Source: Clostridiales bacterium
GTDB lineage: Bacteria; Bacillota; Clostridia; DUPQ01
DNA length: 64,000 nt
Direction: 5' to 3'
Assembly (NCBI GenBank): GCA_023145435.1
Contig: JAGLDS010000001.1
Coordinates: forward strand, 51,140-115,139
In this document: positions 20,547-62,605 of the stretch, piece after piece
Layout: each line of letters opens with the position of its first letter
Position numbering within the stretch: position 1 is the stretch's first letter
The notes under the pieces: generated by a model
What the model saw: only the letters and a program-made list of their open reading frames with translations
Database searches by the model: none
Told to the model about the DNA's origin: nothing
Made by a program: the position numbers and the translations under genes

Positions 20547-21533
20547 ATGAAAAAAATATATGGGTTTGGTTCTGCAACTATGGATTTTAGAATAACAACA
20601 GCCGATTACCCTGATACCTACAAGTCGAAATTACTAGCACAAAAAACTAGCAAACTAGGCGGAGGTGCCATTGCTAATTGTTTAGTTCAAGTAGCAAGAT
20701 TAGGGGGAAAAACTTGTTATCTTGGTAAATTAGGAAACGATTCAATTGGTAAAGATATAATTTCTTCATTAAAGAGTGAAGGGATTTCATGTAAACATAT
20801 AGTTGTTGATAAATCAGTATGTTCTCCATTTAATGTGGCTGTGTATCAAGGAGAAAAAATGAGGAGAAAAGGTGGTTATTTACTACCTAATAGTCTGTTA
20901 TCAATAACAAAAAAAGATATTATTAAAATAACTTCTATAATGAAAAAAAATGACTGGGTAATTGTTGAAATTGGTGAAATTCCTTTGGAAAAAGTATTAT
21001 TTTTCTGTCAGGAAGCAAAGAAAAAGCATGTTCATATTTTACTTGATGTTGATTTAGATCCAATTAAACAATGTATGGGAGATATCTCTTTGATTAACGA
21101 TATATTTATGATTGCTGATATATTGTTGCCAAATATAGAAGCGTTAAAAAGCATGTATAATATAGATGATAATAAAGTTCTTTTAGAAAGGTTGTTTGAA
21201 CAATTTAATAAACCGATTGTAATGACAGCTGGTAAAAAAGGAGCATATTATATATCAGAGTTTGAAAAATATACAAATGTTTTAGCAAGCAAAGTTGAAG
21301 TTATTGATACAGTAGGTGCTGGGGACGCTTTTCATGGAGGCTTATTATTTGGATTAGCAAATGAATGGCTTTTACATGAAGCAATTAAATTAGGTGTTTT
21401 ATGTGGTGGAAAAAATTGTACACAATTTGGTGCAAGAGAAGGTATGGTAGATTTTAAAGAATTATATAATAAGGTGGATAAAGATGAATTCAAACAAACG
21501 ATTTTACAAGACAATGTCTGGAAAATTAGTTGA
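20547..21533 (+). CDS. PfkB/ribokinase-family sugar kinase
   Basis: GGGAIANC N-terminal motif and DTVGAGDAFHGG anion-hole/catalytic motif. The ATG lies 1 nt after the upstream stop. Confidence 0.85.
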   Translation: MKKIYGFGSATMDFRITTADYPDTYKSKLLAQKTSKLGGGAIANCLVQVARLGGKTCYLGKLGNDSIGKDIISSLKSEGISCKHIVVDKSVCSPFNVAVYQGEKMRRKGGYLLPNSLLSITKKDIIKITSIMKKNDWVIVEIGEIPLEKVLFFCQEAKKKHVHILLDVDLDPIKQCMGDISLINDIFMIADILLPNIEALKSMYNIDDNKVLLERLFEQFNKPIVMTAGKKGAYYISEFEKYTNVLASKVEVIDTVGAGDAFHGGLLFGLANEWLLHEAIKLGVLCGGKNCTQFGAREGMVDFKELYNKVDKDEFKQTILQDNVWKIS

Positions 21534-22635
21534 TAGAACACCGGTTGTTCCAAAAATATGGGTAGATTTAGCAGCAAATTTAACAAGTACTCCAATTGTG
21601 AATGTAATAAGTGACCCTGCAACTGCATTAAAAGTAATAGTAGATGCAGGTCTTATTTGTAAAGTTGATGCAGTTAGACAATTTCATTTTCCAAATAGAG
21701 AGATAACCACAGAAGATGAAGAAGTTTATGAAGTTAATAAGGCTGGTAAAAAACTAGGTGTTATTGATATGAAAGGTGGATTAATAACTCATTTATATGA
21801 TGATAATGATTATAAACTTGATAATCCGTATATAATGGCACATCACCATTACTGGGTCACAAAAAAACCTGTAGTAAAATCAATAGAAGACGTAAAGAAA
21901 ATTGTTATTCCTAGTAAACAATATTTAAAAGATATTGGATTAGTTTCAAGACAACAAAAAATTATTGAATATACTAATAATAGATTAGAATTAATTGGAG
22001 ATTGTTCTTCAGCTACTTTAGCTTTTTATGTTTGTTTAAGAGGAATGGATCAAGCTATGTTTGATTTAATTGAAAATGAAAAGTTAGTACATGCTGTAAT
22101 GGAAAAAGGAACTGCTATAGCTATTGAAAAAGGAAAGATGAATATAGATATGGGTATAATGGTACTTAGATTAAATGATTCTATTGCTAATATGTCTGTT
22201 ATTTCACCAACGCATTTTAGAAAATTTATCAAACCTCATATAAAAACAGTTTGTGATGAATTACACCACTATAATAAAAATGTAAAAATATATTGCCATA
22301 TTTGTGGGAATGTTCTTCCAATTATGGAGGACTTAATTGATACGGGGTTAGATTGTATTGCACCATTAGATCCTCTTGGTGGTGGTGCGACTTGTAAACA
22401 ATATAGGAAAAGAGCTGGGGATGAAATAGTGTTAATGGGAGGAGTGAATACTATGTCATTTATTCAAAGAACACCAGATGAAATTGAAAAAGAAGCAACA
22501 GAGTGTATTGAAAGTGCAGGTTCAAACGGTAACTTTATTTTAGGCTCTGGTTGTGTTGTTCCAAGGATGGCAACTAAAGAAAGTTTGTTAGCTTTAGTCA
22601 AAGCATCAAAAACAAAGGGTTTATTAGAAAAATAA
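21484..22635 (+). CDS. URO-D superfamily protein, MtaA/CmuA-like (paralog 1)
   Basis: N-terminal GKLVDRTPVVPKIW, HICG motif and C-terminal FILGSGCVVP (both MtaA-type Zn-ligand positions retained). AAGGTGGA RBS. The start lies 50 nt inside the pfkB-family gene. Confidence 0.7.
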   Translation: MNSNKRFYKTMSGKLVDRTPVVPKIWVDLAANLTSTPIVNVISDPATALKVIVDAGLICKVDAVRQFHFPNREITTEDEEVYEVNKAGKKLGVIDMKGGLITHLYDDNDYKLDNPYIMAHHHYWVTKKPVVKSIEDVKKIVIPSKQYLKDIGLVSRQQKIIEYTNNRLELIGDCSSATLAFYVCLRGMDQAMFDLIENEKLVHAVMEKGTAIAIEKGKMNIDMGIMVLRLNDSIANMSVISPTHFRKFIKPHIKTVCDELHHYNKNVKIYCHICGNVLPIMEDLIDTGLDCIAPLDPLGGGATCKQYRKRAGDEIVLMGGVNTMSFIQRTPDEIEKEATECIESAGSNGNFILGSGCVVPRMATKESLLALVKASKTKGLLEK

Positions 22636-22647
22636 TCATATAAAAAA

Positions 22648-22673: not shown

Positions 22674-22679
22674 TAATGT

Positions 22680-29673: not shown

Positions 29674-29699
29674 ACACGATGTGATTATCGTGTTTTTTG
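29674..29699 (+). terminator. intrinsic terminator/attenuator immediately upstream of the Mor-like gene
   Basis: ACACGAT (29674-29680) / ATCGTGT (29687-29693) with a 6-nt loop, then T6. It ends 15 nt before the ATG at 29714. Confidence 0.55.
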
Positions 29700-29713
29700 T
29701 ATTTGAAAATGAA

Positions 29714-29998
29714 ATGGAGAATATTTTGACATATAAAAATGGGAAAGACGTGCTGCCATCTAATTTACTTAAGCAGATTCAACAATATATAACTGGAGAA
29801 AATATTTATATTCCGACTAATCAACATAAAAGAATTGGTTGGGGAGAAAAAAATGGCACAAAAGAATACTTAACTAAAAGAAATAAACAAATTTATGAGC
29901 AGTATATGTATGGACAATCAATTGGACAGTTGGTTCAATTATTTCATCTGTCTAAAGATAGTATTAAAAAAATTATATATAAGATGAGAAAGAGTTAA
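29714..29998 (+). CDS. Mor/CD3324-family small transcriptional regulator
   Basis: VLPSNLLKQIQQYITGENIYIP...WGEKNGTKEYLTKRNKQIYEQY...SIGQLVQLFHLSKDSIKKIIY is the pattern of the CD3324/Mor family. Confidence 0.6.
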   Translation: MENILTYKNGKDVLPSNLLKQIQQYITGENIYIPTNQHKRIGWGEKNGTKEYLTKRNKQIYEQYMYGQSIGQLVQLFHLSKDSIKKIIYKMRKS

Positions 29999-30804: not shown

Positions 30805-31278
30805 ATGAGTATCTATGACATTACAGTGGAAAACATTTTAGGGTTTGAAAATACTTTAAAAGAATATAAAGGAAAATTTATTATTATTGTTAATACAGCT
30901 AGCAAATGTGGCTTTACACCACAATTTGAAGGATTAGAGAAGCTTTATAAAGAATATAAAGCAAAAGGACTAATTATCATTGGATTTCCTTGTAATCAGT
31001 TCAAAAATCAAGATCCAGGAACTAATGAAGAAATTTTGAGCTTTTGTCAAAGTACATATAAAATTACATTTCCCATGTATTCTAAAATTGATGTAAATGG
31101 TGATAGCCGACATGAACTATATAAATTCTTGATAATGAACACACCTCGAAAAAAAGGAAAGGATATTAAGTGGAATTTTGAAAAATTTCTAATTAGTAGA
31201 GAAGGCAAAATCATTAATCGCTATTCTTCAGTGGTTACTCCTTATAAAATAGGTAAGAATATTAAGAAAATTATTTAG
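30805..31278 (+). CDS. gpx: glutathione peroxidase (Cys type)
   Basis: NTASKCGFTPQ, GFPCNQF, WNFEKFLI. Confidence 0.9.
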   Translation: MSIYDITVENILGFENTLKEYKGKFIIIVNTASKCGFTPQFEGLEKLYKEYKAKGLIIIGFPCNQFKNQDPGTNEEILSFCQSTYKITFPMYSKIDVNGDSRHELYKFLIMNTPRKKGKDIKWNFEKFLISREGKIINRYSSVVTPYKIGKNIKKII

Positions 31279-32449
31279 TTATATTTTTTAACATTTTAAT
31301 AGCATACATATAACTTCTAGGTACGTGAAATGGACCTTTCCAAATACATCCCTTAACAGATGAGGAAATTGTATTATCTCTATGAAGATAACCATACCAC
31401 TCGCCATACTCATTATCATAAAAATTTGACTGAATATAGTTGTTAATTGTATCAAACCACTGTAAATATTTTTTATTTTCTGTGTAAGAATAAGCCATAA
31501 GAGTGGCAATGATTGCTTCATTATGCGGCCACCATAATTTCATGTCCCATTCTAAATTATAAGGTGGCAGACCTTCGCTATCTAAAAAAGAATATAAACC
31601 ACCATATTTTTTATCCCACCCTGTTAACAGTGAAGAATCAAGAATACTTAAACCTAAATTTATATATGCTTGATTGTTACTTGTTATACCTTCTTCAAGG
31701 ATAAACCAAGCTGTTTCAATAGCATGGCCTGGATTTAGAAGTCTTCCTTCTGGAATATCACTATAATATTCACCTGATGGACCAATATTCTCTATTAGCA
31801 TCTTTTTGTCGCTAAAAAAGAAATGATGTTCAATTTGATGTATTGAATCTTTTATGATTTTGGCATAATCATATGAATTGTCACCTTGTCTCATTGTTTT
31901 ACAAAGATCAATCATAATCATTACCAATGAGTGATTTTTCATTAACCTGTTTTCGGTAACTATCTTTGATGGTAACTTGAGTTCTCCATAAAATACATCA
32001 AATACTGTTTTAAAACTTTGTAATGATAAATTATAGGCATCTAAATTTTTTGTTGCTATATAATATTCCATCATTCCAGCTGCTACAAAAACATCGGAAA
32101 AAATATATCTTCTTTTTATTATAGGTTTACCATCTTTGGTCATTCTAAAAAATAATCTATTGTCTTTATCAATGCAATAATTCTTAATAAAATTATAACC
32201 TGATGCTGCTGTATCAAGCCATTTTTGATTTTTTGAAAATTGATTATACATTTTTGAAAATATATATAATCCTCTTCCTTGCATCCAAACTGATTTATCA
32301 GTACTTATTAAGGTCCCGTCACGATTCAACCAAGTCATGTAACCACCATAAATGGAGTCGATACTATGATTCATCCAAAATGGAAGAATTTTTTCAAGAA
32401 GCTGATACTCATATTGAGCTTTGATTTCTGATAAATGAATATTATTCAT
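31271..32449 (-). CDS. AGE-family (N-acylglucosamine 2-epimerase / cellobiose 2-epimerase / YihS-like) sugar isomerase/epimerase
   Basis: ILPFWMNHSIDSIYGGYMTWLNRDG...WMQGRGLYIFSKMY plus later (alpha/alpha)6 repeats (HAIETAWFILE, WWPHNEAIIA). ATG at 32449 with GAGG upstream. The 3' end overlaps gpx convergently by 8 nt. Confidence 0.7.
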   Translation of the reverse strand: MNNIHLSEIKAQYEYQLLEKILPFWMNHSIDSIYGGYMTWLNRDGTLISTDKSVWMQGRGLYIFSKMYNQFSKNQKWLDTAASGYNFIKNYCIDKDNRLFFRMTKDGKPIIKRRYIFSDVFVAAGMMEYYIATKNLDAYNLSLQSFKTVFDVFYGELKLPSKIVTENRLMKNHSLVMIMIDLCKTMRQGDNSYDYAKIIKDSIHQIEHHFFFSDKKMLIENIGPSGEYYSDIPEGRLLNPGHAIETAWFILEEGITSNNQAYINLGLSILDSSLLTGWDKKYGGLYSFLDSEGLPPYNLEWDMKLWWPHNEAIIATLMAYSYTENKKYLQWFDTINNYIQSNFYDNEYGEWYGYLHRDNTISSSVKGCIWKGPFHVPRSYMYAIKMLKNITK

Positions 32450-32485
32450 GCTTTCATACCTCAACTATTACTAATCGATAATTCT

Positions 32486-35343: not shown

Positions 35344-36882
35344 ATGAAAGTTTATTCAAGTAGACAATTATTTATAGATGATAAGTTTATTCAGTTTAAG
35401 GAAAATATCAAATTAGTTGTGCATCAGCCAACAAAAACAGGAGAAATTGTCATTTGGAAAAATCAGTCTCCACATCATAGAATCGGTGGATATAACTCTA
35501 TAATATTTGATGAAGGAATTTATAAACTCTATTATGGCGAAACCTTATATAAAGAAGATGGTGTTTATGCATTTGTATGCTTAGCTACCTCGACTGACGG
35601 TATTAATTTTAATAAACCTTCACTTGGCTTAGCTCCACACTATCATGAGAAAGATAATAATATTATTATTGGTTTTGGTGCTGGGGGTGTAAAAGACGGA
35701 TTAGGTGACGGTGGCTGTATGGTGTTTATTGATCCTAATGATCAAAAGAATAAATATAAGCTATTAGCTAGGCATGGACTTAAGCGACATATGGGACTTT
35801 ATGGTTCTAGCGATGGGATACATTTTAAATTTGAAAAAGAAAAAGTATTAGATGATAGGCGATTTGAAAAAACTAAAGGGGAAACTTATAGAGGGTTTCA
35901 TCTTGACTCGCAAAATATTATATTTTATGATGAGACAATTAAAAAATATGTAACATTTGTTAGAAGGAATTATGAAATTGGTGGACAAGTAAGAGCAATT
36001 GCACGAGGTGAGAGTAAATCATTAGATGAATTTTGTGTAGTAGAGGATATGAAAGTTATTATAAAACCAGATGAAAAAGATCCTCAGTTTTTTGTAGAAG
36101 AAGCCAATAAGGAAGTACCTGTTATTGATTATTATACAAATTGTGTTAACCAATATCCTTTTGCAGCAGATACCTATGTAATGTTTCCTGGAATGTATTT
36201 TAAATATAATCGCTTTATTGATAAATTTAGTGAAAACAAACCAATGAATGCAGGTCCAATTGATACCTTTTTTGCAGCAAGTAGAGATGGAATTGATTGG
36301 GATTTTTACGATAGAAAACCTTTTATTAGATTAGGTGAGAAACACGAATTTGATGCCTATGCACAATACATGGTTCATGGAATTGTCCCAGGTAATGGGA
36401 ATAATATGTATTTATACTATATGGGTAGTGATATAATTCATGGGTATGGTAGAGGTGATCAATATGAAGAAAGAGAAAACAAAATAATAGCTAAAGCCAA
36501 TCTTAAACCAACAAATAATGTCACTGCAATTAGCCGATTGGTTATGAGAAGAGATGGATTTGTTTCAGCCAGTGCTGGTTATCAGTACGGTTCAATAAAA
36601 ACACCTATACTTATATTTAATGGTAACCAATTATTAATAAATGTAGATACTTCAGCTACAGGATTTATGAAAATAGAAATAAGAGATGAGCATAATAAAC
36701 CAATTTCTGGATTCACAATAAATGACTGTGACATGATTCATACTACAAATGATATTAATAAGATAGTTACTTGGAATGACTTATCTGATGTAAGTTCGTT
36801 ACAAGAAAAAGAAATAAGCTTATATTTTCATATGTTTAATTGTGATTTATATGCATTTGAGTTTACCAATAAATTGATATAA
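35344..36882 (+). CDS. beta-propeller glycoside-hydrolase-like protein with a C-terminal beta-sandwich, paralog of 18416..19819
   Basis: Blade motifs STDGINFNKP, SSDGIHFKF, SRDGIDWDF. C-terminal MRRDGFVSASAG ... LINVDTSATGFMKIEIRD. No signal peptide. Confidence 0.5.
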   Translation: MKVYSSRQLFIDDKFIQFKENIKLVVHQPTKTGEIVIWKNQSPHHRIGGYNSIIFDEGIYKLYYGETLYKEDGVYAFVCLATSTDGINFNKPSLGLAPHYHEKDNNIIIGFGAGGVKDGLGDGGCMVFIDPNDQKNKYKLLARHGLKRHMGLYGSSDGIHFKFEKEKVLDDRRFEKTKGETYRGFHLDSQNIIFYDETIKKYVTFVRRNYEIGGQVRAIARGESKSLDEFCVVEDMKVIIKPDEKDPQFFVEEANKEVPVIDYYTNCVNQYPFAADTYVMFPGMYFKYNRFIDKFSENKPMNAGPIDTFFAASRDGIDWDFYDRKPFIRLGEKHEFDAYAQYMVHGIVPGNGNNMYLYYMGSDIIHGYGRGDQYEERENKIIAKANLKPTNNVTAISRLVMRRDGFVSASAGYQYGSIKTPILIFNGNQLLINVDTSATGFMKIEIRDEHNKPISGFTINDCDMIHTTNDINKIVTWNDLSDVSSLQEKEISLYFHMFNCDLYAFEFTNKLI

Positions 36883-46117: not shown

Positions 46118-47205
46118 TTGTTGGTGTTGTTGGATTAGGTTTAATTGGAGGTTCCATTGCAAAAGCATTAAAAAAACATAAAGCATGTGATTTTATTATT
46201 GCCTATGATAATAATACTGAAACATTGAAGAATGCAAAAGAAGAAAATATAATTAATGAATATACCTTAAAAATAAATAAATCCTTTGCAAAATGCCAAG
46301 TAATATTTATTTGTACACCTGTAGATAGTATATTTGGTATTATTGAAAAATTTAGTAAGATTGTACCCACATCATGTATTATTACAGATGTGGGTAGCAC
46401 AAAAAACTCCTTGGCACATCAAGTAAATCAATTACATCCAATGGTATCTTACATTGGTGGACATCCAATGGCAGGTCTTGAAAAAAATGGTTATGATTAT
46501 TCTAGCGAAATTTTATTAGAAAATGCTTATTATTTAATAACGAAATCATCATTTAATACAGAAGAGCAAATGGCTTTATTTCAAAGTTTGATTAAAAAAA
46601 TTAAAGCTATTCCTTTGATAATTTCACCAGAATATCATGATTATATCGTAGCTAGTATTTCGCATATTCCCCATATTATTGCTTCATCGCTAGTAAATAT
46701 GGTGAAAAGCAATGATCAAGACAATAACTATATGCATACTTTAGCATCTGGTGGATTTAGAGATATTACAAGGATTGCTTCTTCATCACCTACTATTTGG
46801 AAAGATATATGTTTACATAACTCACAAGAAATACAAGATAATTTAAAAGTATTTATTAATAAAATAAAGATATTTGAAGAAGCTATTATCAATAAAGATG
46901 AAAAAACTCTTTTAATGCTGTTTACTCAATCAAAAGAATATCGTGATTCTTTTGATAATAGACAGACTAGCATAATGAATAAAATTTATGATTTTTCAAT
47001 AAGTGTTGAAGATAAACCTGGAATTATAGCAGATGTTTCTACCATTCTGGCAAAAAACAATATTAACATAAAGAATATTGGGATTTTAAACAATCGTGAA
47101 AGCTATGGTGGTGCACTACGAATTGAATTGTATAGTGAAGAACATAGACTGCAAGCATTACAGGTATTAGAGAAATTACAGTATAATATTCACGTAAAAG
47201 AATAA
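46114..47205 (+). CDS. tyrA: prephenate dehydrogenase with a C-terminal ACT domain
   Basis: VGLGLIGGS NAD motif, GGHPMAG, ISHIPH, and an ACT-like tail (ISVEDKPGIIADVSTILA). ATGA overlap with aroF. Confidence 0.9.
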   Translation: MIVGVVGLGLIGGSIAKALKKHKACDFIIAYDNNTETLKNAKEENIINEYTLKINKSFAKCQVIFICTPVDSIFGIIEKFSKIVPTSCIITDVGSTKNSLAHQVNQLHPMVSYIGGHPMAGLEKNGYDYSSEILLENAYYLITKSSFNTEEQMALFQSLIKKIKAIPLIISPEYHDYIVASISHIPHIIASSLVNMVKSNDQDNNYMHTLASGGFRDITRIASSSPTIWKDICLHNSQEIQDNLKVFINKIKIFEEAIINKDEKTLLMLFTQSKEYRDSFDNRQTSIMNKIYDFSISVEDKPGIIADVSTILAKNNINIKNIGILNNRESYGGALRIELYSEEHRLQALQVLEKLQYNIHVKE

Positions 47206-52952: not shown

Positions 52953-52971
52953 CATAGGAACTTAAATAACG

Positions 52972-53060
52972 ACATTCATGTGGGAGCCTAAGATATGGCT
53001 GAGAGGAATAAACTTCGACCACTACACCTGATCTGGGTAATGCTAGCGTAGGAAATGATA
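52972..53060 (+). promoter_or_regulatory. TPP (THI-box) riboswitch aptamer
   Basis: Conserved cores GGCTGAGAGG and ACCTGATCTGGGTAATGCTAGCGTAGGAA. P1 pairs TCAT (52976-52979) with ATGA (53055-53058). Confidence 0.9.
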
Positions 53061-53076
53061 GTTAATCGTATCGATT

Positions 53077-53135: not shown

Positions 53136-53388
53136 ATGAAATGTAATGTAATGTTACAAGTCGTTCCTATAGTTGAAGAAGAAAGCATCTACTATGTGGT
53201 AGAACAAGTTATTAATTATATAAAAAGGTAATGTTTCTTATGTAGTTGGCCCAATGGAAACTACCATGGAAGGTGAACTAAATCAATTAATGTCTATTAC
53301 AAAGAGAGTACAAGAAAAGTGTATTGGATATAAAACTTTAAAAGTATGTTCAGTAATTAAAATTATCATAAGAAAGAAGGGGTTACAT
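53136..53388 (+). pseudogene. MTH1187/YkoF (DUF77) thiamine-precursor-binding domain, split by a frameshift in an A5 run and then in frame with thiX
   Basis: Frame 1, 53136-53231: MKCNVMLQVVPIVEEESIYYVVEQVINYIKR*. The +1 frame from 53224 reads KGNVSYVVGPMETTMEGELNQLMSITKRVQEKC...VIKIIIRKKG, which completes a DUF77 domain. There is no stop before the permease. Confidence 0.6.
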
Positions 53389-54147
53389 TTGAAGAAAAAA
53401 CCAATAAATATTCTTTATAAACTGTTACCTTCCATAATGCTAGTGAGTATACTTGCCATTTGGGAGATTATTGTTAAGGTGAAAGATATTAAAGAATATA
53501 TTCTTCCTTCACCAAGCGCTATAATCAACGAATTTATAAAATCTTTTGATGTATTATTTTCTCATACAATAATTACATTGTCAGAAACATTGTTAGGTTT
53601 TGTTGTAGGTACTATATTAGCTATAATACTGTCTATTGCTATTGATAAGTTTGTCTTAATGAGACGAATTGTATATCCTTATTTAGTTATATCACAGACA
53701 ATCCCACTAGTTGCTTTAGCACCAATATTAGCTATTTGGTTTGGATTTGGAATTGTTCCTAAAATAATATTGTCAGCATTAGTTGTCTTTTTCCCAATCA
53801 CATTAAGTCTAACAGAGGGTCTTTCAAATTATGACAGAGAATTATATGAAATGATGGTACAGTTAGGTTCAACTGATCGCCAATTATTTTTTAAATTAAA
53901 ACTACCATCAGCTTCTACACACTTTTTTTCAGGATTAAAAATAGCTGCAGCATATTGTGTAATGGGAGCGGTCATTTCGGAGTGGGTAGGCGCATCAAAG
54001 GGATTAGGAATCTTTTTAACCAGAGCTATGAGCTCTTTTCAGACAGCAGCACTATTTGCAGATATTGTAATTATTATCATAATAAGCATAACGTTGTTTA
54101 AGGGCATTGAATTTATAGAAAAAAAAGTATTGTCGTGGAGGAATTAA
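53389..54147 (+). CDS. thiX: ABC transporter permease, ThiX type (HMP/formylaminopyrimidine uptake)
   Basis: Six-TM SsuC/TauC-like permease with EAA-loop-like LGSTDRQLFFKLKLPSA. Candidate TTG start at 53389 with AAGGGG 6 nt upstream. The frame is open from 53224 and the first ATG is at 53254. Confidence 0.75.
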   Translation: MKKKPINILYKLLPSIMLVSILAIWEIIVKVKDIKEYILPSPSAIINEFIKSFDVLFSHTIITLSETLLGFVVGTILAIILSIAIDKFVLMRRIVYPYLVISQTIPLVALAPILAIWFGFGIVPKIILSALVVFFPITLSLTEGLSNYDRELYEMMVQLGSTDRQLFFKLKLPSASTHFFSGLKIAAAYCVMGAVISEWVGASKGLGIFLTRAMSSFQTAALFADIVIIIIISITLFKGIEFIEKKVLSWRN

Positions 54148-54150
54148 CTT

Positions 54151-55125
54151 ATGAAAAAATTATTTATAATTATTATTAATCTTATACTAGTGGTAACCTT
54201 GCTAGTAGGATGTGCAAAAAAAACAGATGAAACAATAAAGGTGAATTTTGTTCTAGACTGGACACCAAATACTAATCATGCAGGTATTTATGTTGCAAAA
54301 TCTCTTGGGTATTTTGAGGAAGTTGGATTAGACGTTAATATTATACAACCTTCAGAGGGAACTGCTGAACAGCTTGTTGCATCAGGTAGCGCAGATTTTG
54401 GTATTAGTTATCAAGAAAATGTTACGTTTGCTAGAAGCGAAGGTGTTCCAATTGTATCTATTGCTGCAATTATTCAACACAACACATCGGGCTTTTTATC
54501 TAGAGCAGACGAAAATATTAATGGTGTTAGTGATTTTGAAAATAAAAAATATGGTGGTTGGGGTGGTCCTATTGAAGAGGCAACAATCAAATATTTAATG
54601 GACCAGGTAGGTGCTGATTACAAAAAGACTGAGATTATAACATCAGGAGATATTGACTTTTTCACAGGAAGTGAAACTGGGAATATAGATTATGCTTGGG
54701 TTTTTGAAGGTTGGGCTAATATACAAGCTAAAATAAAAGGAGTTGATGTTAATTACATCGATTTAGGAAAAGAAGCTAAGGTTTTTGATTACTATACACC
54801 TATAATTATTACTAGTGAAAAAAACATAAAAAATGGTGATATAACAGAAAAGTTTATGAAGGCAGTTATTAAAGGATATACTTATTGTATTGAGAATCCA
54901 AAACAAGCAGCTGACTTATTAATAAAAGCAGTTCCTGAATTACCTGTAGAATTAGTAACTAATAGTATGATGTTTTTAGCTAAAAAATATAAAGATGATG
55001 CTCCTTATTGGGGATACCAAAATGATGAAGTTTGGAGCAGGTATATGGATTGGTTAGTAGAAAATCAATTTATTGATCAAGCTATTAAGATAGAAGAGGC
55101 GTTTACTAACGATTATGTAAAATGA
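54151..55125 (+). CDS. thiY: NMT1/THI5-like substrate-binding lipoprotein, ThiY type
   Basis: Lipobox LLVGC and VNFVLDWTPNTNHAGIYVAKSLGYFEEVGLDVNI, typical of ThiY/NMT1. It lies downstream of a TPP riboswitch. Confidence 0.8.
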   Translation: MKKLFIIIINLILVVTLLVGCAKKTDETIKVNFVLDWTPNTNHAGIYVAKSLGYFEEVGLDVNIIQPSEGTAEQLVASGSADFGISYQENVTFARSEGVPIVSIAAIIQHNTSGFLSRADENINGVSDFENKKYGGWGGPIEEATIKYLMDQVGADYKKTEIITSGDIDFFTGSETGNIDYAWVFEGWANIQAKIKGVDVNYIDLGKEAKVFDYYTPIIITSEKNIKNGDITEKFMKAVIKGYTYCIENPKQAADLLIKAVPELPVELVTNSMMFLAKKYKDDAPYWGYQNDEVWSRYMDWLVENQFIDQAIKIEEAFTNDYVK

Positions 55126-55838
55126 TTAAAGTTACAGATTTAAATAACACATATACATCGAATGAAGGGAATGTAAAAGTTCTTGAACACTTATTTCTTA
55201 CTTGTGAAAAGAATCAATTTGTATCAATTATTGGGCCCTCTGGTTGTGGTAAAAGTACTTTTTTCAAAATACTTTCTGGTATTATTACAGATTATACTGG
55301 TTCATATAAAATTGATGGACAAGTTATTTATATGCATCAAAACGACAACTTAATGCCTTGGAGAAGTATATATGACAATATAATACTGCCCTATGAAATA
55401 AGAAAAGAAAAACCAAATCATGAAAAAATTAAAAAATTAGTTGAAGAATTTGAATTAGATGGTTTTATGGATATGTATCCACATCAATTATCAGGTGGGA
55501 TGAGAAAGCGAGTTTCATTATTACGCGCTTACCTGACAAATAGAGAAGTTATGTTACTTGATGAACCCTTTGGTTCTCTAGATGCCTTAACTCGAAAAAA
55601 TATGTACAGTTGGTTATTGAAAATTTGGTATAAACATCAAAAAACAGTACTATTCATAACCCATGATATTGAAGAGGCTATTTATTTATCTGATATAATT
55701 TATGTGATGGGAAAGAGACCTGCGACAATTGTTGATAAAATTAAAATTGATTTTAAAAGACCTAGAAACACTGATATGCTCATAGGGCAAGAGTATCTAA
55801 TTTACAAAAAAAGGCTACTAGACTCACTTGCCAAGTAA
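55122..55838 (+). CDS. thiZ: ABC transporter ATPase, ThiZ type
   Basis: Walker A GPSGCGKST, signature LSGGMRKR, Walker B LLDEPF. ATGA overlap with thiY. Confidence 0.85.
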   Translation: MIKVTDLNNTYTSNEGNVKVLEHLFLTCEKNQFVSIIGPSGCGKSTFFKILSGIITDYTGSYKIDGQVIYMHQNDNLMPWRSIYDNIILPYEIRKEKPNHEKIKKLVEEFELDGFMDMYPHQLSGGMRKRVSLLRAYLTNREVMLLDEPFGSLDALTRKNMYSWLLKIWYKHQKTVLFITHDIEEAIYLSDIIYVMGKRPATIVDKIKIDFKRPRNTDMLIGQEYLIYKKRLLDSLAK

Positions 55839-56373: not shown

Positions 56374-57288
56374 ATGAACGAGGGCAAAAAAGGAACTATA
56401 TTCATTATTATTGCTTATGTATTGTGGGGTCTTTTCCCATTTTATTGGGCGCAATTAAGCCATGTGTCAAGTATAGAAATAATTGCTTATAGGATATTAT
56501 TTTCATTTATATTGTGCCTTATTTACTTAATTTATAAAAAAGAACTTTCAGTTTTTGATATTTTTAAAAATTTCAAATCTACATTACGATTTATCTTTAT
56601 AAGCTTATTATTGTTTATTAACTGGTTTACGTTTATATATGCTGTTACTAATAATATGGTTATTGATGCTGGAATGGGATATTACTTAAACCCAATTATC
56701 AGTATATTATTAGGAATATTATTTTTAAAAGAAAAACTTGGGAAATTACAAATTGCTGCATTTACATTAGCAGTTCTTGGTATTGTATATTATATTGTAA
56801 GTATGGGAGTTATTCCATATATTACTCTTATTTTAGGAACAACATTTGGTGTGTATGGATTGTTCAAAAAAAAGACTACACTTTCTGGTATGCATTCAAT
56901 GTCAATCGAAACTGCTCTTTTAACACCTATTGCTTTAATTATTCTTTTTGTGGTATCTAAAAACAGTGATATCTCATTATTTATAGGAGATATAAAAACA
57001 ATTACTTTTATTGTTTTTGCAGGTTTTATTACTCTTACACCATTGGTCTTGTTTGCTGAAGCTACAAAGAGAATTCCATTAACTAGAGTTGGATTTTTAC
57101 AATTAATTGCTCCAACTATGATGCTAATTACAGGGCTTGTCATGGGAGAAGATTTTTCGTTTAATCGAATAATTTCACTTTCGTTTATTTGGGTAGCACT
57201 AATCATATATAGTATTTCAATAATGAAAGGAGACGATAATGATAGGAAAAACAATAAAAGACTTTCCACCAACAGCAGAAAATCCTAG
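56374..57288 (+). CDS. rarD: EamA/RarD-family (DMT superfamily) permease
   Basis: GTIFIIIAYVLWGLFPFYW and ten TM helices in a 5+5 EamA repeat layout, typical of RarD. Confidence 0.7.
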   Translation: MNEGKKGTIFIIIAYVLWGLFPFYWAQLSHVSSIEIIAYRILFSFILCLIYLIYKKELSVFDIFKNFKSTLRFIFISLLLFINWFTFIYAVTNNMVIDAGMGYYLNPIISILLGILFLKEKLGKLQIAAFTLAVLGIVYYIVSMGVIPYITLILGTTFGVYGLFKKKTTLSGMHSMSIETALLTPIALIILFVVSKNSDISLFIGDIKTITFIVFAGFITLTPLVLFAEATKRIPLTRVGFLQLIAPTMMLITGLVMGEDFSFNRIISLSFIWVALIIYSISIMKGDDNDRKNNKRLSTNSRKS

Positions 57289-58342
57289 AAATTCAGAAGG
57301 CTCATTTGTTAAGTTGGAAGATGGAACAATCATATTTGCTTATAGTAAATTTATGGGTGAAGGTCATCAAGACGTATCAAAAGCATATATTGCGTTTGAA
57401 TATTCATATGATAATGGAGAAACATTTGGAGACGAAAAAATAATGTTTTCGCCAGATGAAGTAGGTGCAAAAAATATAATGGCTGTGTCCTTTTTACAAT
57501 TGGATAATTGTATTATTGTTGCTTATGTAGTTAGATATGGATTTCATGATCTTAGACTACATATTAGAAAAACCTATGACCAGTGTAAAACCTTTACTGA
57601 ACTAAAATGCACTATACCTTATCCTGGTTACTATGTTACAAACAACGATAGATTAGTTAGATTATCTAATAATTCTATTATTATACCTACCGCATATCAT
57701 CGTTGTCTTCATAGCGATTCTTTAGCTTGGAGTTCATGGGATAGTCGTGGAGTTGCTAGATTCTTTGTTTCAGAGGACGAAGGTGAAACATTCATAGAAT
57801 CAAAGGGATTTGGTGCGCTAAATATTGGTGATAGTAATACAGGGTTACAAGAACCAGGTGTAATTGAAATAAATAAAGGACATCTTCTTTGTTATTGTAG
57901 AACTGATTTAGGATGTCAATACTTATCACATTCATATGATTATGGTAAAACATGGAGCAACTTTTCACCATCAAAATTCTTTTCACCAACATCGCCAATG
58001 TCTATGAAGAGAATTGATGAAAAAAGGATTTTGGCAGTTTATAATCCTGTTCCAATAACACCTATTGCTAACGAAGGAACTTCATGGGGAAGGACACCAC
58101 TAATTGGAGCAATAAGTGAAGATAATGGTAGTACTTTTAGCAAATTTTTCATGTTAGAAAATGATAAACTAGCTGGATTTTGCTATACAGCTATGTATGT
58201 TGATGGAGATAATATTTTGTTATCATATTGTTGTGGTGGTGAAACTGATGGTCAATGCCTAAATAGAATCAGAATAAGAAAGTTAAGTGTGCAAGATATA
58301 TATAACAATCTAGAGCAAAGTAGTATAATAATAAATACATAG
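57239..58342 (+). CDS. BNR/Asp-box six-bladed-propeller protein (sialidase-like), cytoplasmic
   Basis: Four Asp-boxes: SYDNGETF, SEDEGETF, SYDYGKTW, SEDNGSTF. N-terminal NPRNSEGSFV. AAAGGAG RBS. The start lies 50 nt inside rarD. Confidence 0.7.
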   Translation: MIGKTIKDFPPTAENPRNSEGSFVKLEDGTIIFAYSKFMGEGHQDVSKAYIAFEYSYDNGETFGDEKIMFSPDEVGAKNIMAVSFLQLDNCIIVAYVVRYGFHDLRLHIRKTYDQCKTFTELKCTIPYPGYYVTNNDRLVRLSNNSIIIPTAYHRCLHSDSLAWSSWDSRGVARFFVSEDEGETFIESKGFGALNIGDSNTGLQEPGVIEINKGHLLCYCRTDLGCQYLSHSYDYGKTWSNFSPSKFFSPTSPMSMKRIDEKRILAVYNPVPITPIANEGTSWGRTPLIGAISEDNGSTFSKFFMLENDKLAGFCYTAMYVDGDNILLSYCCGGETDGQCLNRIRIRKLSVQDIYNNLEQSSIIINT

Positions 58343-58356
58343 GGAGGGAATTGTTC

Positions 58357-59373
58357 ATGAAAAAAGTTACTGTAGGATTTATTGGTTGTGGAGGGTTTGC
58401 CCAAAATATGCATATGCCTTTATTAGTGAAAAATGATAAATATATCATTAAAGCTTATATGGATATTAATCTAGGAGCTGCTAAAAGTGCTCATGAAAAA
58501 TTTGGAGGAGACTATTACACAGATAAGATTGAAAAGCTTTTAGATGATCCAACGATTGATTTGGTTTTTATAACTACAAGACATGATTCACATGCAAATT
58601 TAAGTATAAAAGTTGCTAATGCTAAAAAAAATATCATGTGTGAAAAACCAATGGCTCTAAATTATGAAGACTGTTTAAGAGTAGCAAAAGCTGTTAAAGA
58701 GAACAATGTGAAATATACCATTGGATATAACAGAGGGTTAGCACCTTTAGTTACTAAAGCTAAAGATTTGTTAGATACAACTAAGGGGAAAATTATGGCT
58801 TATCATCGAATACAAGCACCATTTCCAGAAGAGCATTGGGCTCATATAAAGGAAATAGGTGGAGGCAGATTCGTTGGTGAAGGCTGTCATATATTTGACT
58901 TATTCTGTAGATTAATTGATGCTGATCCAATTTCTGTTTATGCTTCAGGAGGAACTTTTTTAGATGAAAAAAAAGTAGCTGTTCCTGATAGTGCAAATGT
59001 GACAATTACATTTGCTGATGGTAGTGCTTGCACAACATTAATAGCAAGTGCGGGTTGTTCAGCTTTTGAAAAGGAAGTAACAGAAATATATTGCGATAAT
59101 AAAGCAATATATATTAATGGATTCAAGGAAATTGAATATTATGGATTTGAAGGACATGATAAAATTGCAATGCAATTAGATGGAGTAGATAAAGGTCAGC
59201 GAATCGAACTTGATTTATTAGCAGATGCAATATTAAATAATACACCTAGCCCAAATGGGATTGACATTGCTTTAAGAGCTGCTGTTATAAGTTACAAAGT
59301 TGATCAATCAATTGAAAGTAAACAACCAGTTAAAATAAAAGAAAGTGAAATTTACTATAATGAAGATTACTAA
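58357..59373 (+). CDS. Gfo/Idh/MocA-family NAD(P)-dependent oxidoreductase
   Basis: VGFIGCGGFAQ Rossmann motif and the CEKPMA (EKP) motif. Confidence 0.85.
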   Translation: MKKVTVGFIGCGGFAQNMHMPLLVKNDKYIIKAYMDINLGAAKSAHEKFGGDYYTDKIEKLLDDPTIDLVFITTRHDSHANLSIKVANAKKNIMCEKPMALNYEDCLRVAKAVKENNVKYTIGYNRGLAPLVTKAKDLLDTTKGKIMAYHRIQAPFPEEHWAHIKEIGGGRFVGEGCHIFDLFCRLIDADPISVYASGGTFLDEKKVAVPDSANVTITFADGSACTTLIASAGCSAFEKEVTEIYCDNKAIYINGFKEIEYYGFEGHDKIAMQLDGVDKGQRIELDLLADAILNNTPSPNGIDIALRAAVISYKVDQSIESKQPVKIKESEIYYNEDY

Positions 59374-60607
59374 GGGTTCGATTGGATATGTAACTGAACC
59401 TCTATTAAAACCTTTTGGGTTTAAAGGAGGTTATGTTAGTGATGTCTGGCAGGTAGTAGTAAGTATCGGTAATGATGAACATATGGCAACTGGACTAAGT
59501 ATTCAATCAGTTCTTTGGTCAGATGGACAGGTTTTTGCATCACTAGGTCAATTAGCTGGTGATAAACTTATGTATGATACAACAAAGTTTGCTTTGTCAT
59601 ATTTACAAACCATTGAATTTGAGCACCCAAAACAAGCTACTAGAATGTTGTTTGAAAAGTGTTATGAACATGTAAAAATAACAACTAAAATAGATGTTAA
59701 AAAAACCTTTATATTAAATGCATTAGTAGCTATTGATATGGCATTATGGTTGCTATATGCAAAAGAAAAAGGAGTTACTTCTTTTACTAAATTAACAGGA
59801 TTAGAAAAAAAGCATAATAAAGTAGCATCTATTCCGTTAATTACTTATACAACAACAACAGATGAAATAAGAGAAATGCTAAATAATGGACAGTTCTTTT
59901 TAAAGATTAAAATTGGGAATAATTATGAATGGGACAAACAGCGTATAATGGAAATTTATCAATTAACTAAAGAGATAGATTGTCCATACACTACTACTGA
60001 AAAACCAATATTATATTTAGATGCTAATGGCAGGTATGAAAATTATGACAAATTAGCTTCTTTGATTAATTATCTTGATATAAAAGGTATTTTACCTGAT
60101 GTTGGATTATTTGAAGAGCCATTTTCAGAAGAAAAACAAATAGATATAAGTTTACTACCTTGTATCTTTGCATGTGATGAAAGTGCTCATTCTGTCAAAG
60201 AGGTAAAGGAAAGATATGAACAAGGGTATAAAGCTATTGCACTAAAACCAGTGGCAAAAACGTTATCTGAAAGTCTAGAGATGTTAGAGTTTGCTATATC
60301 TATGGGAATGAAGCCATTTGTTGCTGATTTAACTGTTAATCCATTTCTATTGGAATTAAATCGTAATATAGCTTGTAGAATAGATACATTAGACAGTGTA
60401 TCTGTTGGGTTACTTGAAACCAATGGTGACATGAATTATACCAATTGGGAAAAGATGATTACTTACCATCCGCTAAAAAAAGAAGGTTTTCAGGTTGCAA
60501 AAAATGGAGTATTTATAATGGATGACTATGAGAAAAATGATGGAGGAATCTTTTTGAATTCTTCATATTATGATAGTGTTCCAAAGGAGGTAATTAAAAA
60601 TGGCTAG
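59360..60607 (+). CDS. enolase-superfamily protein, muconate-lactonizing-enzyme (MLE)-subgroup-like
   Basis: Ordered motifs FLKIKIG (KxK), LYLDANGRY (Asp ligand), LFEEPF (Glu ligand), ACDESAHS (third ligand), IALKPV (second Lys base). The start is either ATG 59360 or GTG 59345, and both overlap the upstream gene. Confidence 0.6.
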   Translation: MKITKGSIGYVTEPLLKPFGFKGGYVSDVWQVVVSIGNDEHMATGLSIQSVLWSDGQVFASLGQLAGDKLMYDTTKFALSYLQTIEFEHPKQATRMLFEKCYEHVKITTKIDVKKTFILNALVAIDMALWLLYAKEKGVTSFTKLTGLEKKHNKVASIPLITYTTTTDEIREMLNNGQFFLKIKIGNNYEWDKQRIMEIYQLTKEIDCPYTTTEKPILYLDANGRYENYDKLASLINYLDIKGILPDVGLFEEPFSEEKQIDISLLPCIFACDESAHSVKEVKERYEQGYKAIALKPVAKTLSESLEMLEFAISMGMKPFVADLTVNPFLLELNRNIACRIDTLDSVSVGLLETNGDMNYTNWEKMITYHPLKKEGFQVAKNGVFIMDDYEKNDGGIFLNSSYYDSVPKEVIKNG

Positions 60608-61532
60608 AAAAGTTAAAATATCTGTATTGTCTGGACATCGTCCTAACCAGTACAATGGTGAAATGAAAGTAGATTTGGCTATAAAAGCCATGAAAGATTA
60701 TTGGACAAACGAATTACAACAAGCGGTTAATGAAAAAAGTGATGTGGTATTGCTACCAGAAGCTTGTGATAGATTTTTAGACTTAGAACCTTCATTTGCT
60801 AAAGAATTTCATGAAACAAAAATTCACATAATGCCTGAATTTTTTGCAAAATATGCCAAAGAACATAAGATTACCATTGTTTATAGTGGCAAATTAGAGA
60901 AAACAAACTCAAGTGTAGTATTTGATCAAGATGGAAATACTGTATCAACTTATGATAAAGTTTTTCCAATGATTGAAGAAATTAATGTTGGAATTATTCC
61001 GGGGACAGATGCAATAATTAGTTCATTTAATAATATTAAAAAGGCAGGATTTGCTATTTGTTTTGATTTGAATTTTGATGAACTAAGACAACAATATATT
61101 GATTTAGGTTCTGAAGTAATCTTTTTTTCTTCAATGTTTCACGGAGGATTTCAACAAGAACTTTGGGCATATAGTACTAGGTCGTTTTTTGTGTCTTCTA
61201 TATTTGGGAAACAAAGTAGAATAATGGCGCCAAATGGGAGTATACTTGCGTCAACTTCAAACTATAATACACATTGTTCTGCTGTAGTTAATTTAGATAG
61301 TGTGCTAGTTCATTTAGATCATAATAATAATAAGCTTCCAGCAATTAAGAAAAAATATGGAGATAAAATTATTGTTGATGATACAGGATATTTAGGTTCT
61401 ATTATGATATATAATGAACTAGAAGATAGAACAATTAATGATATAGTAAAAGAATTTAAACTAGAATTACTTGATGACTATTTTAATAGATCAAGAGATT
61501 ATATAAGCAATTTCTTGAAAAGCATTGATTAA
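60600..61532 (+). CDS. carbon-nitrogen hydrolase (nitrilase superfamily) amidase
   Basis: E-K-C triad contexts VVLLPEACD, YDKVFP, GFAICFDLNF. AAGGAGG RBS. 8-nt overlap with the upstream gene. Confidence 0.7.
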   Translation: MARKVKISVLSGHRPNQYNGEMKVDLAIKAMKDYWTNELQQAVNEKSDVVLLPEACDRFLDLEPSFAKEFHETKIHIMPEFFAKYAKEHKITIVYSGKLEKTNSSVVFDQDGNTVSTYDKVFPMIEEINVGIIPGTDAIISSFNNIKKAGFAICFDLNFDELRQQYIDLGSEVIFFSSMFHGGFQQELWAYSTRSFFVSSIFGKQSRIMAPNGSILASTSNYNTHCSAVVNLDSVLVHLDHNNNKLPAIKKKYGDKIIVDDTGYLGSIMIYNELEDRTINDIVKEFKLELLDDYFNRSRDYISNFLKSID

Positions 61533-62605
61533 TATGTACCTAATTTTAATCCTTTTTCAATAAAGTATTTATAGGTTTCATAATCTACATTGTTAGGTAT
61601 AGAGTGGTCTGAGTGTAAAACATAACCAAAGTTTTTCATTACATAGGGAATTTTTTCTTCTAATTCTTTATCAATCAATTTTTTATCATTTGAATAAAGA
61701 ACTCTTACATCAATTCCTCCCATGAAAGATAAATCTTGACCAAATTGTTTATATAATTTTACTAAATCCATTCCAGCTTTTACTTCAATAACTTGCAGAC
61801 AGTCAATGCCTGCATCCATCATACCTGGAAGCAATGTTTCTACATAACCACAAGAATGCATAATTACAGGTAAATCAAGACTTTTGGCAAAATCAATAGT
61901 TTTTTTATGACCTGGCTTAATTATTTCGTCATACATAGCAGGTGACATAAAGGGGCGTAATTTAAAACCCATATCTTCGTAATACCAAATACCATCTGGT
62001 TTTCCTTCTTTTTCAAACAAGATTTCTTGTAAGTTAACAATAAGTTCTGAATAGGTATCAACCATATCTTTAACCCAATCAGGATCTAATGCCATTCCTA
62101 CAAGCATATGTTCATGTCCGCATACTGGATGCATAGATTCGAAAACGTTAACTCCAGATAAACAGAAAAACTTATTTTGTAAAGCAGCTTTTGCTTTCTT
62201 AGTGCGATAATCATCAAAGTTAATTCTATCAACGGTAGCCTTAAGTAATGGTTTTGTATATTTTTCCCAAGCTTTACGTTCTTTTACGAGAAAATCCACA
62301 TGTTCAGGAGTGGCATCATGTAATTTGTGTCTTCTTAATAAAGCTCCATTGCCATCACGTTTTAGGACAGTTTCTTCTGTTTCTTCAATTATTTGTGGTA
62401 TAAAATTTAAATCAGCCGTTAATTTAAAAGCCCATGATAATTCCAAATCAAAATTAAAGTGTTCACCAAAATCTACGTCTATAGGAATTTTATCTTTTTT
62501 GGCCCAGATTCTTTTAGTATCAGACCAAAAATGCTCCATAAGACCAATTCTATCAACTGGTTTCCTCTGTAAGATATTTGTTATACGATCTATACTGTTC
62601 ATCAT
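61529..62605 (-). CDS. URO-D superfamily protein, MtaA-like (paralog 5)
   Basis: N-terminal QRKPVDRIGLMEHFW, HSCG motif, C-terminal YVLHSDHSIPNNVD. GGAGGT RBS before the ATG at 62605. Convergent 4-nt overlap with the CN-hydrolase gene. Confidence 0.65.
   Translation of the reverse strand: MMNSIDRITNILQRKPVDRIGLMEHFWSDTKRIWAKKDKIPIDVDFGEHFNFDLELSWAFKLTADLNFIPQIIEETEETVLKRDGNGALLRRHKLHDATPEHVDFLVKERKAWEKYTKPLLKATVDRINFDDYRTKKAKAALQNKFFCLSGVNVFESMHPVCGHEHMLVGMALDPDWVKDMVDTYSELIVNLQEILFEKEGKPDGIWYYEDMGFKLRPFMSPAMYDEIIKPGHKKTIDFAKSLDLPVIMHSCGYVETLLPGMMDAGIDCLQVIEVKAGMDLVKLYKQFGQDLSFMGGIDVRVLYSNDKKLIDKELEEKIPYVMKNFGYVLHSDHSIPNNVDYETYKYFIEKGLKLGTY

Follow-up and report, generated by a model that had tools for sequence, protein, structure and literature searches.

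What do five far-diverged members of the uroporphyrinogen decarboxylase (URO-D) superfamily do among sugar-enzyme genes, in a stretch of DNA that carries no gene for a corrinoid or haem partner? The question is raised by 64 kb (G+C about 29%) of contig JAGLDS010000001.1 from an uncultured anaerobe, a Clostridiales bacterium; the whole of these 64 kb is called the window here. The fold itself is familiar from the synthesis of haem and from methyl transfer in methanogens. A sequence-only reading of the window had noticed the five genes and proposed for them a role in carbohydrate metabolism. Our results indicate that four of the five families, all except that of the copy named U3, are probably sugar-processing enzymes lacking prior characterisation, because they recur beside genes for the breakdown of sugars and sugar acids in many bacteria. 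More specifically, we see an even chance that MtaA-like enzymes of the URO-D fold have been recruited to the catabolism of anionic or modified sugars, where they would serve as cytoplasmic accessory enzymes.

Five separate genes and their candidate ligand sites

Open reading frame (ORF) calling found all five genes where the sequence-only reading had put them, and every copy scores above the gathering cut-off of the Pfam URO-D model (PF01208, 23.9 bits):

21484-22635, plus strand: U1, 383 aa, Pfam URO-D 138 bits
32486-33640, minus strand: U2, 384 aa, Pfam URO-D 48.8 bits
33914-34960, plus strand: U3, 348 aa, Pfam URO-D 51.8 bits
41601-42656, plus strand: U4, 351 aa, Pfam URO-D 25.7 bits (marginal), the most divergent copy
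61529-62605, minus strand: U5, 358 aa, Pfam URO-D 60.2 bits

For U2 and U5, starts shorter than those of the longest ORFs are preferred, with GGAG-type ribosome-binding sites upstream. Exactly these five URO-D ORFs and no sixth were found when the six-frame translation of the window was searched with family hidden Markov models (HMMs). U4 is accepted as a member despite its marginal score because it is backed by its own family and by the related family of U1 partners described below, which scores 37.5 bits with the Pfam model. The copies had been described as far diverged from one another, and they are: their pairwise identity is 20-27% by BLASTP, and U4 is undetectable against the other four. 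By eye, no N-terminal signal-like hydrophobic stretch is seen in any of them, so all five are predicted to be cytoplasmic.

None of the five is HemE, MtaA or MtbA by curated models. With the hemE equivalog model TIGR01464 (cut-off 303 bits) U1 scores 39.3 bits and U5 20.2 bits, and U2, U3 and U4 give no match; the copies are distinct from bona fide HemE, as had been held. No copy reaches the cut-off of the MtaA/CmuA models TIGR01463, NF040654 and NF041608 (cut-offs 235 to 600 bits). The best MtaA-type score belongs to U1, with 87.8 bits for TIGR01463 (cut-off 235) and 102 bits for PRK06252 (cut-off 244), and U2-U5 score 17-52 bits on models of the MtaA/CmuA type. Most likely, the five intact genes stand for five subfamilies that parted long ago, all of them within the MtaA-like part of the URO-D superfamily.

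Structural models place U1 and U5 in the same fold. The U1 model has a predicted local distance difference test score (pLDDT) of 92.3, and its top Foldseek match is MtaA (4AY8/4AY7, E = 8e-18, template modelling (TM) score 0.72/0.81), followed by HemE and then MetE. The U5 model (pLDDT 94.8) is equidistant from HemE and MtaA. Both models match MtaA and HemE at TM 0.65-0.81, that is, as a (beta/alpha)8 barrel. Searched by sequence against the Protein Data Bank (PDB), U3 and U5 have no match at E <= 0.01; a profile of the U5 family finds MtaA weakly (E = 0.028).

The motifs cited in the sequence-only reading are all present as described. Four copies have the N-terminal (V/P)DR motif (KLVDRTPV, EIPDRIPI, KVPDRPTL, KPVDRIGL), and four have H-x-C-G (HICG, HSCG, HHCG, HSCG), in place of which U2 reads HFYDDG. 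The C-terminal ligand position reads GSGC in U1, GICC in U4, GTSD in U2, GTGN in U3 and HSDH in U5. The following residues are invariant within families:

U1 family: C271, H272, C274, C357 and four more Cys
U4 family: H247, C249, C326 and C327
U5 family: H250, C252, H331, D333 and H334

The seven invariant Cys had suggested an extra Fe-S cluster in U1, a reading that was set aside: in the model several of these Cys sit within helices or in the middle of strands. The U2 family, with 56 representative clusters at E <= 1e-30 and a best identity of 42%, is smaller. In 35-38 of its 38 sequences Y273, D274, D275 and G276 replace H-x-C-G, and D359 stands in place of the C-terminal Cys in 33 of 38. 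Since the Tyr-Asp-Asp-Gly and the Asp are conserved across the family, U2 appears to have a different, conserved site and not a decayed one. Each sampled family thus has a conserved ligand signature of its own: His-Cys-Cys in U1 and U4, His-Cys with His-x-Asp-His in U5, and Tyr-Asp-Asp with Asp in U2. The metal in U1 and U4 is, by analogy with MtaA, presumably zinc.

Comparison with known enzymes shows how far these likenesses go. MtaA, MtbA and CmuA (TIGR01463; 4AY7/4AY8 from Methanosarcina mazei) share the URO-D fold and the N-terminal (V/P)DR(V/I)P motif with the window proteins. The MtaA ligand set of H-x-C-G and a C-terminal G-C is in register in U1, where HICGN and G-S-G-C align with the motifs of 4AY7, and is invariant in the U4 family. 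A few members of the U1 and U5 families even lie beside corrinoid proteins and MtaB. However, identity to MtaA is only about 19%, the score is 88 bits versus 235, U3 and U5 have no C-terminal Cys, and U2 has neither the His nor the Cys. The genomic setting differs as well: no corrinoid protein is encoded in the window or in >90% of related loci, and the surrounding genes serve sugar transport and sugar catabolism. To our knowledge bacteria, which are the hosts here, do not use coenzyme M.

HemE (TIGR01464; 1URO, 1J93) shares the fold, with TM about 0.70 for the U1 and U5 models. It differs in sequence (11-18% identity, <=39 bits), in the absence of a haem-pathway context here and in the conserved His/Cys or acidic motifs of the window families; HemE is, as far as we know, metal-free. 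MetE (1XPG, 1U1H) is a distant relative among the barrels and alkylates thiols at a zinc site made of His/Cys/Cys(/Glu); its two tandem barrels resemble the pair formed by U1 and its partner gene. The MetE structures match the U1 and U5 models at E = 1e-7 to 1e-5 with TM of only about 0.5, and there is no Pfam Meth_synt match. Moreover, MetE is one fused polypeptide that acts on methyl-folate and homocysteine.

Neighbourhoods in related genomes and in the window

An association with sugar genes persists in other genomes for U1, U2, U4 and U5, as the sequence-only reading had expected, and is strongest for U1 and U4; for U3 only close relatives were retrieved. All four families are widespread and, some more deeply than others, are part of loci for the catabolism of anionic or decorated sugars. 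Their contexts are tripartite ATP-independent periplasmic (TRAP) transporters or sodium/solute symporters (SSF) with sulfatase, a dihydrodipicolinate synthase (DHDPS)-family aldolase, L-fucose isomerase (FucI) and FGGY kinase for U1; hexuronate genes for U4; a glycoside hydrolase of family GH95 and an N-acylglucosamine 2-epimerase (AGE)-family gene for U2; and oxidoreductases, GH38 and enolase-family genes for U5.

More than 600 homologs of U1, with 54-63% identity, occur in Clostridia, Atribacteria and Spirochaetes, and are unnamed or labelled 'uroporphyrinogen decarboxylase family protein'. We compared 83 loci of this family (identified here by L numbers, like other related loci), of which 80 came from a metagenome scan and three from individual look-ups. 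ORFs around U1 were called and clustered and representative sequences annotated; the partner was recounted with its own HMM. In the three looked-up loci the U1-family gene is accompanied by IclR, a DctPQM TRAP transporter, a DHDPS-family aldolase and, in some, a sulfatase. They also have another, weak URO-D gene, which we call the partner. The counts are as follows:

All 83 loci: partner 53 (48 within 300 bp), SSF 10, DHDPS 31, sulfatase 16
The 46 loci with >= 1.3 kb on both sides: partner 32, SSF 8
The 22 loci with >= 5 kb on both sides: partner 15, TRAP 15, SSF 4, TRAP or SSF 19, DHDPS 11, sulfatase 5

Of the 83 loci, 12 have FucI, 11 an FGGY kinase, 17 IclR and 6 an aldose 1-epimerase. One sub-group has SSF, sulfatase and the U1-like gene, followed by genes for large FGE-sulfatase/BNR_2, DUF5703, PA14 and Laminin_G_3 proteins. 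A radical-SAM/SPASM gene adjoins the sulfatase in L094.

The partner family keeps H-x-C only. It is 25-29% identical to U4 (E = 1e-40 to 3e-49); the U1 partner and U4 are related subfamilies and not orthologs. We infer that U1-type proteins often work jointly with this second URO-D-fold protein. In one locus (L136:7468-9999, plus strand) a continuous ORF of 843 aa, directly upstream of the U1-family gene, joins an SSF symporter (residues 37-423) to a URO-D partner domain (513-842).

The U1 operon of the window consists of four genes, of which U1 is the last:

18377-19819, plus strand: 480-aa protein with no Pfam match and with repeated S-x-DG-x-x-W motifs, first gene of the operon
19847-20545, plus strand: FSA/TalC-type aldolase
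20526-21533, plus strand: PfkB sugar kinase, overlapping U1 by 50 nt

Here FSA and PfkB stand in place of DHDPS and FGGY, which is unusual for the family. In a neighbour-joining tree window U1 lies inside the large transporter/partner clade, as sister to L094 (partner, TRAP, DHDPS and sulfatase), and L161, L171 and L173 are basal. The window operon is an atypical member of a typical clade.

The U4 family has 1998 homologs at 45-85% identity, one relative being annotated as Latescibacterota. Hexuronate genes (UxaC/UxaE or KduI) are present in all four of the independent U4-family contexts outside the window. Two lineages have UxaE-UxaC divergent from the URO-D gene together with an SSF symporter, and one of these also has GH2. 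In the two other contexts GntR, a split transketolase, a sugar ATP-binding cassette (ABC) transporter, an M14 peptidase and KduI are followed by three tandem URO-D genes. This trio (L091:10001-13444, L174:8001-11465), which comes after KduI and the sugar ABC transporter, consists of a U4-like gene and two others of 374-385 aa. U4 of the window is flanked by glycosyltransferases of family GT4 and by a GH2-like gene:

38292-39419, plus strand: GT4
39416-41599, plus strand: double GT4, ending 1 nt before U4
42774-45047, plus strand: GH2-like gene, downstream of U4

The window region around U4 is an odd mixture of aromatic amino-acid and glycan genes, with 3-deoxy-D-arabino-heptulosonate 7-phosphate (DAHP) synthase and an ACT-domain prephenate dehydrogenase (45101-47205, plus strand) between GH2-like and GT4 genes.

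U2 lies directly beside one gene of sugar metabolism:

31271-32464, minus strand: AGE-family (N-acylglucosamine 2-epimerase fold) gene, 21 nt downstream of U2, Pfam GlcNAc_2-epim 147 bits

With the NCBIfam AGE model this gene scores 357 bits, below the cut-off of 600. The arrangement is kept in a relative of about 80% identity (L092), where an 807-aa gene is inserted between the two. A further U2 homolog, the predicted 1071-aa protein P0370, has GH65N_2 and, ahead of a URO-D domain that resembles U2, the catalytic domain of GH95. Its middle linker region is of low complexity and looks frameshifted, so the join of GH95 and U2 may be a frameshift or a read-through of two adjacent genes.

For U5, a scan of one genome per species gave 243 relatives, and neighbours were counted for the 80 that were kept, a set 63-97% identical. 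The family is 63-81% identical across phyla, its hosts being Clostridia, Spirochaetes, Chloroflexota, Atribacteria, Hydrogenedentes, Gemmatimonadetes and Armatimonadota; the closest relatives are in the Clostridia metagenome-assembled genomes CSMAG_185 and CSMAG_202. Among the 80 loci the neighbours are an ABC exporter in 16, a GFO/IDH/MocA oxidoreductase in 14 (11 within 3 kb), GH38 in 10, short-chain dehydrogenase/reductase (SDR) and aldo-keto reductase (AKR) in 9 each, a major facilitator superfamily (MFS) transporter in 8, MR_MLE in 6 and CN-hydrolase in 5. The GFO/IDH/MocA and enolase-type genes also stand beside U5 in the window, in a string on the other strand:

57239-58342, plus strand: BNR_2 propeller, convergent with U5
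58351-59373, plus strand: GFO/IDH/MocA oxidoreductase, convergent with U5
59345-60607, plus strand: enolase-superfamily-like gene, 420 aa, with no Pfam match and weak NCBIfam matches to o-succinylbenzoate synthase and dipeptide epimerase
60600-61532, plus strand: CN-hydrolase, convergent with U5 and not coupled to it

U3 (HSCG, with Asn at the C-terminal ligand position) gave only close relatives of 80-87% identity. Note that relatives obtained with a three-sequence query of U3, U5 and U2 were dominated by the U5 family, and the same query returned no U2 relatives. U3 is transcribed divergently from U2, and its sole close neighbour is the following gene:

35344-36882, plus strand: 512-aa protein downstream of U3, with no Pfam, NCBIfam or PDB match

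In L092 and L093 the U3 gene is kept with a 510-aa gene. The 512-aa protein is a paralog of the 480-aa protein of the U1 operon (23% identity over 521 aa, E = 4e-16). Both have repeated S-x-DG-x-x-W/F motifs, which suggest a beta-propeller; neither has a Pfam or NCBIfam match or, by sequence search, a relative in the PDB. Distant homologs of about 800 aa with a Laminin_G_3 domain occur in the U1-family loci L159 and L172.

The sequence-only reading had each copy adjacent or coupled to a sugar enzyme. This holds for U1 (PfkB), U4 (GT4 and GH2-like) and U2 (AGE). It was too strong for U5, which is convergent with the CN-hydrolase string on the other strand, and also for U3.

The window has some other features of note. 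A thiamine pyrophosphate (TPP) riboswitch (RF00059, 62 bits) lies at 52970-53071 on the plus strand, upstream of an ABC system at 53254-55838 that comprises a permease with a Thiamine_BP fragment, an NMT1/THI5-like binding protein and an ATPase. Because of the riboswitch, the Thiamine_BP fragment and the NMT1/THI5-like protein, this system is probably an importer of a thiamine precursor. The gene at 1407-2279 (plus strand) belongs to the streptomycin/aminoglycoside adenylyltransferase family PF04439 (286 bits) and looks like an aminoglycoside nucleotidyltransferase resistance gene. A small ORF at 29681-29998 (plus strand), of the Mor (phage Mu-type) transcription activator family, is isolated among chromosomal genes.

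Corrinoid partners and the possible reactions

The statement that the 64 kb encode no corrinoid protein, MtaB, activase or hem gene stands. Pfam scanning of 57 window ORFs, which are all the non-nested ORFs of >=100 aa, found no B12-binding, MtaB, activase or hem/tetrapyrrole family. A B12-binding HMM built from 11 sequences has no match at E <= 10 in the six-frame translation of the window. Rfam finds no cobalamin riboswitch in it, the TPP riboswitch being its sole match. Haem-pathway genes are absent from the window and from the annotated related loci.

In related loci of the U1 and U5 families, corrinoid genes were counted within 10 kb, for U5 by tblastn on the DNA. They are absent from 78 of the 83 U1-family and 77 of the 80 scanned U5-family loci, and no B12-binding gene was matched in any of the U4-family loci examined. 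The absence of corrinoid partners is therefore true of the window and of >90% of related loci, but a minority of U1- and U5-family loci do carry B12-binding genes. The five in the U1 family are L161, L171, L173, L108 and L114. The B12-binding gene directly adjoins the URO-D gene in L161 and L171 and is close to it in L173. In L108:2-1480 and L114:3-1313 a B12-binding protein and a short (about 325 aa) MtaA-like URO-D gene form a pair at the upstream edge of a complete IclR-DHDPS-(FucI)-partner-TRAP-U1-partner cluster; in no other locus does a corrinoid pair adjoin a sugar-type cluster. For U5, individual look-up added L008 and L009 to the three scanned loci, all three of which are from Hydrogenedentes and represent 3 of the 38 loci with >=5 kb on both sides. 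A U5-family gene is directly upstream of the B12-binding gene in L008, L009, L077, L080 and L087, and in one of the first two the U5-like gene is beside B12-binding, MtaB, CobW and further URO-D genes. MtaB together with a corrinoid protein is found only in L008, L171, L080 and L087. An operon of a first methyltransferase (MT1), a corrinoid protein, a second methyltransferase (MT2) and a reductive activase was seen neither in the window nor in typical loci of the families.

How could such enzymes serve in sugar catabolism? We propose that they act on imported uronic, sulfated and possibly O-methylated monosaccharides, before or alongside the isomerase, kinase and aldolase steps. The leading guess for the reaction is O-demethylation by methyl transfer, a guess that we put forward tentatively and that would more probably prove wrong than right. 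The O-methyl group would be taken from a sugar or sugar acid by an acceptor corrinoid, encoded elsewhere or free. Methyl or alkyl transfer is the most natural guess for three reasons: U1 and U4 have ligands of the thiol-alkylation type, the proteins are close to MtaA, and corrinoid genes are now and then direct neighbours. Attractive candidate substrates would be 4-O-methyl-glucuronate in the hexuronate loci and methyl-fucoses in the fucose loci.

Two known systems bear on this guess. The O-demethylase MT1 enzymes MtvB of Moorella and MtoB of Methermicoccus belong to the URO-D superfamily. These enzymes break a methyl ether and hand its methyl group on; should the window enzymes use an O-methyl sugar, this chemistry would in our view be the most plausible. 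The alkyl methyl ether of a sugar has a poorer leaving group than an aryl methyl ether. Canonical O-demethylase operons act on aryl methyl ethers and carry a corrinoid protein, MT2 and a reductive activase (PMC8630106), and such partner genes do not accompany the window genes. The second system is the cytochrome P450 that demethylates 6-O-methyl-D-galactose in polysaccharide-utilisation loci of marine Bacteroidetes (PMC6292453, PMC10033563). Its role, removal of a monosaccharide methyl ether so that catabolism can proceed, is the role proposed here. The fold and the chemistry are unrelated, the P450 reaction being an O2-dependent oxidation that releases formaldehyde, and strict anaerobes could not use it because it needs O2.

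A narrower version of the proposal is that U1 with its partner, and U4 in hexuronate loci, form an O2-independent demethylase for O-methylated sugars or uronic acids that has no dedicated corrinoid protein. The methyl carrier would then be a free cobamide, or the chemistry would be direct, on a zinc thiolate. We hold this version to be improbable.

Several points weigh against a sugar-catabolic role, and against demethylation in particular. In the window itself the U1 operon, with its propeller-like gene, FSA and PfkB, lacks a partner gene, and both the only transporter gene (SSF, partial) and the sulfatase gene are >10 kb away. The U2 and U3 families are thinly sampled. The neighbourhoods of U5 are variable, its commonest sugar-related neighbour being present in only 14 of 80 loci, and the neighbour clusters depend on our own ORF calling and on single-linkage clustering. 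The literature searched holds no biochemical datum for any of the families. Ether demethylation without Co(I) is chemically difficult, and >90% of the loci have no corrinoid protein; the activase and MT2 genes of canonical O-demethylase operons were seen in none. Finally, one shared chemistry for all five copies is unlikely, since U2 has no thiol-type ligands.

Among the alternatives, the one that fares best supposes a corrinoid-independent chemistry other than methyl transfer on sugar acids, in which the metal serves as a Lewis acid; examples would be decarboxylation, isomerisation, dehydration or ring-ether opening. U1 and its partner might then pair up as a two-barrel enzyme, much as MetE has a double barrel. 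We consider this rather unlikely as a full account, although a corrinoid-independent reaction, perhaps of the U1-partner pair, is about as likely as O-demethylation because canonical O-demethylase operons carry corrinoid protein, MT2 and activase genes and these loci do not. The lack of corrinoid genes in most loci fits it, as does the near-obligate second URO-D gene beside U1-family genes (32 of the 46 loci with enough flank), the fusion of SSF and partner in one locus, and the place of MetE as next structural relative after MtaA and HemE. The conserved acidic site of the U2 family and the His-x-Asp-His that replaces the C-terminal Cys in the U5 family point in the same direction, and the parent fold includes a cofactor-free decarboxylase. 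On the other hand, U1 and U4 retain His-Cys-Cys, the very ligands with which MtaA and MetE activate a thiol for alkyl transfer, and the corrinoid adjacency of a minority would be hard to explain. We also know of no member of the URO-D fold that acts on a carbohydrate.

The proteins could instead be ordinary corrinoid-dependent methyltransferases of the MtaA (MT2) or MtvB/MtoB (MT1) type, whose sugar neighbours are incidental or loosely related. The substrates would be C1 or methoxy compounds, for instance methanol from pectin or methoxy-aromatics, with the corrinoid protein, the MT1 or MT2 partner and the activase encoded elsewhere in the genome; it is important to note that our partner search in the source genome covers the 64-kb window, part of a contig of at least 160 kb. 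MtaA is the best match of U1 both in sequence and in fold. The three U1-family loci with a nearby B12-binding gene and a basal position in the tree (L161, L171 and L173, one of them also with MtaB), and the five loci with a U5-family gene directly upstream of a B12-binding gene, three of them with MtaB, agree with such an activity. In a tree of the U5 family the corrinoid-adjacent members are found in at least two separate places nested within a tight family of >=63% identity, which suggests a shared biochemistry, so a corrinoid-linked activity is a live possibility for the whole U5 family. For the five genes together this explanation is unlikely. It does not fit the absence of corrinoid genes within 10 kb in most U1 and U5 loci and in U4 loci, nor the synteny with transporters, DHDPS, sulfatase, FucI, UxaC/UxaE and KduI, which is tight, keeps to the same strand and often leaves little space between genes. 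Window U1 belongs to the sugar-locus clade and not to the corrinoid-adjacent one, and U2 has no His/Cys ligands at all.

That the genes are genuine hemE or remnants of a haem pathway, as the Pfam family name and the HemE structures among the fold matches could suggest, has next to no probability and was rejected on the hemE model scores far below cut-off, to which are added the lack of a hem gene in the window, five paralogs at 20-27% identity that are unlike a housekeeping enzyme, and the His/Cys motifs conserved in the U1, U4 and U5 families.

Meaning for the URO-D families and for anaerobic sugar catabolism

The fold and the superfamily are already known; the clades in sugar loci have a real but unproven potential to represent a new enzyme activity. 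In the open-access full-text literature that we searched, no paper was found on URO-D-family proteins in sugar loci, and neither the pairing of U1 and partner nor the changed ligands of U2 and U5 were found described there. This agrees with the earlier assertion that such a role is not described for the fold. The U1, U4 and U2 families each have hundreds to thousands of relatives in sequence databases. These are annotated only as 'uroporphyrinogen decarboxylase family protein' and are central to transporter-linked gene clusters for sugar acids, sulfated sugars and hexuronates. Assigning their reaction would fill a recurrent gap in anaerobic polysaccharide catabolism and correct a widespread and misleading annotation.

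The O2-dependent P450 is the only sugar O-demethylase that we know of and the only one that our literature search brought up. Sugars with methyl groups or other decorations are reported to withstand degradation in the gut and to build up in sea water (PMC6292453). If the enzymes described here are demethylases, the fate of methyl sugars in anoxic habitats becomes directly testable, and a demethylase working with no dedicated corrinoid protein would be the anaerobic counterpart of the P450 enzyme. Whatever the chemistry, a carbohydrate substrate would be new for the URO-D fold.

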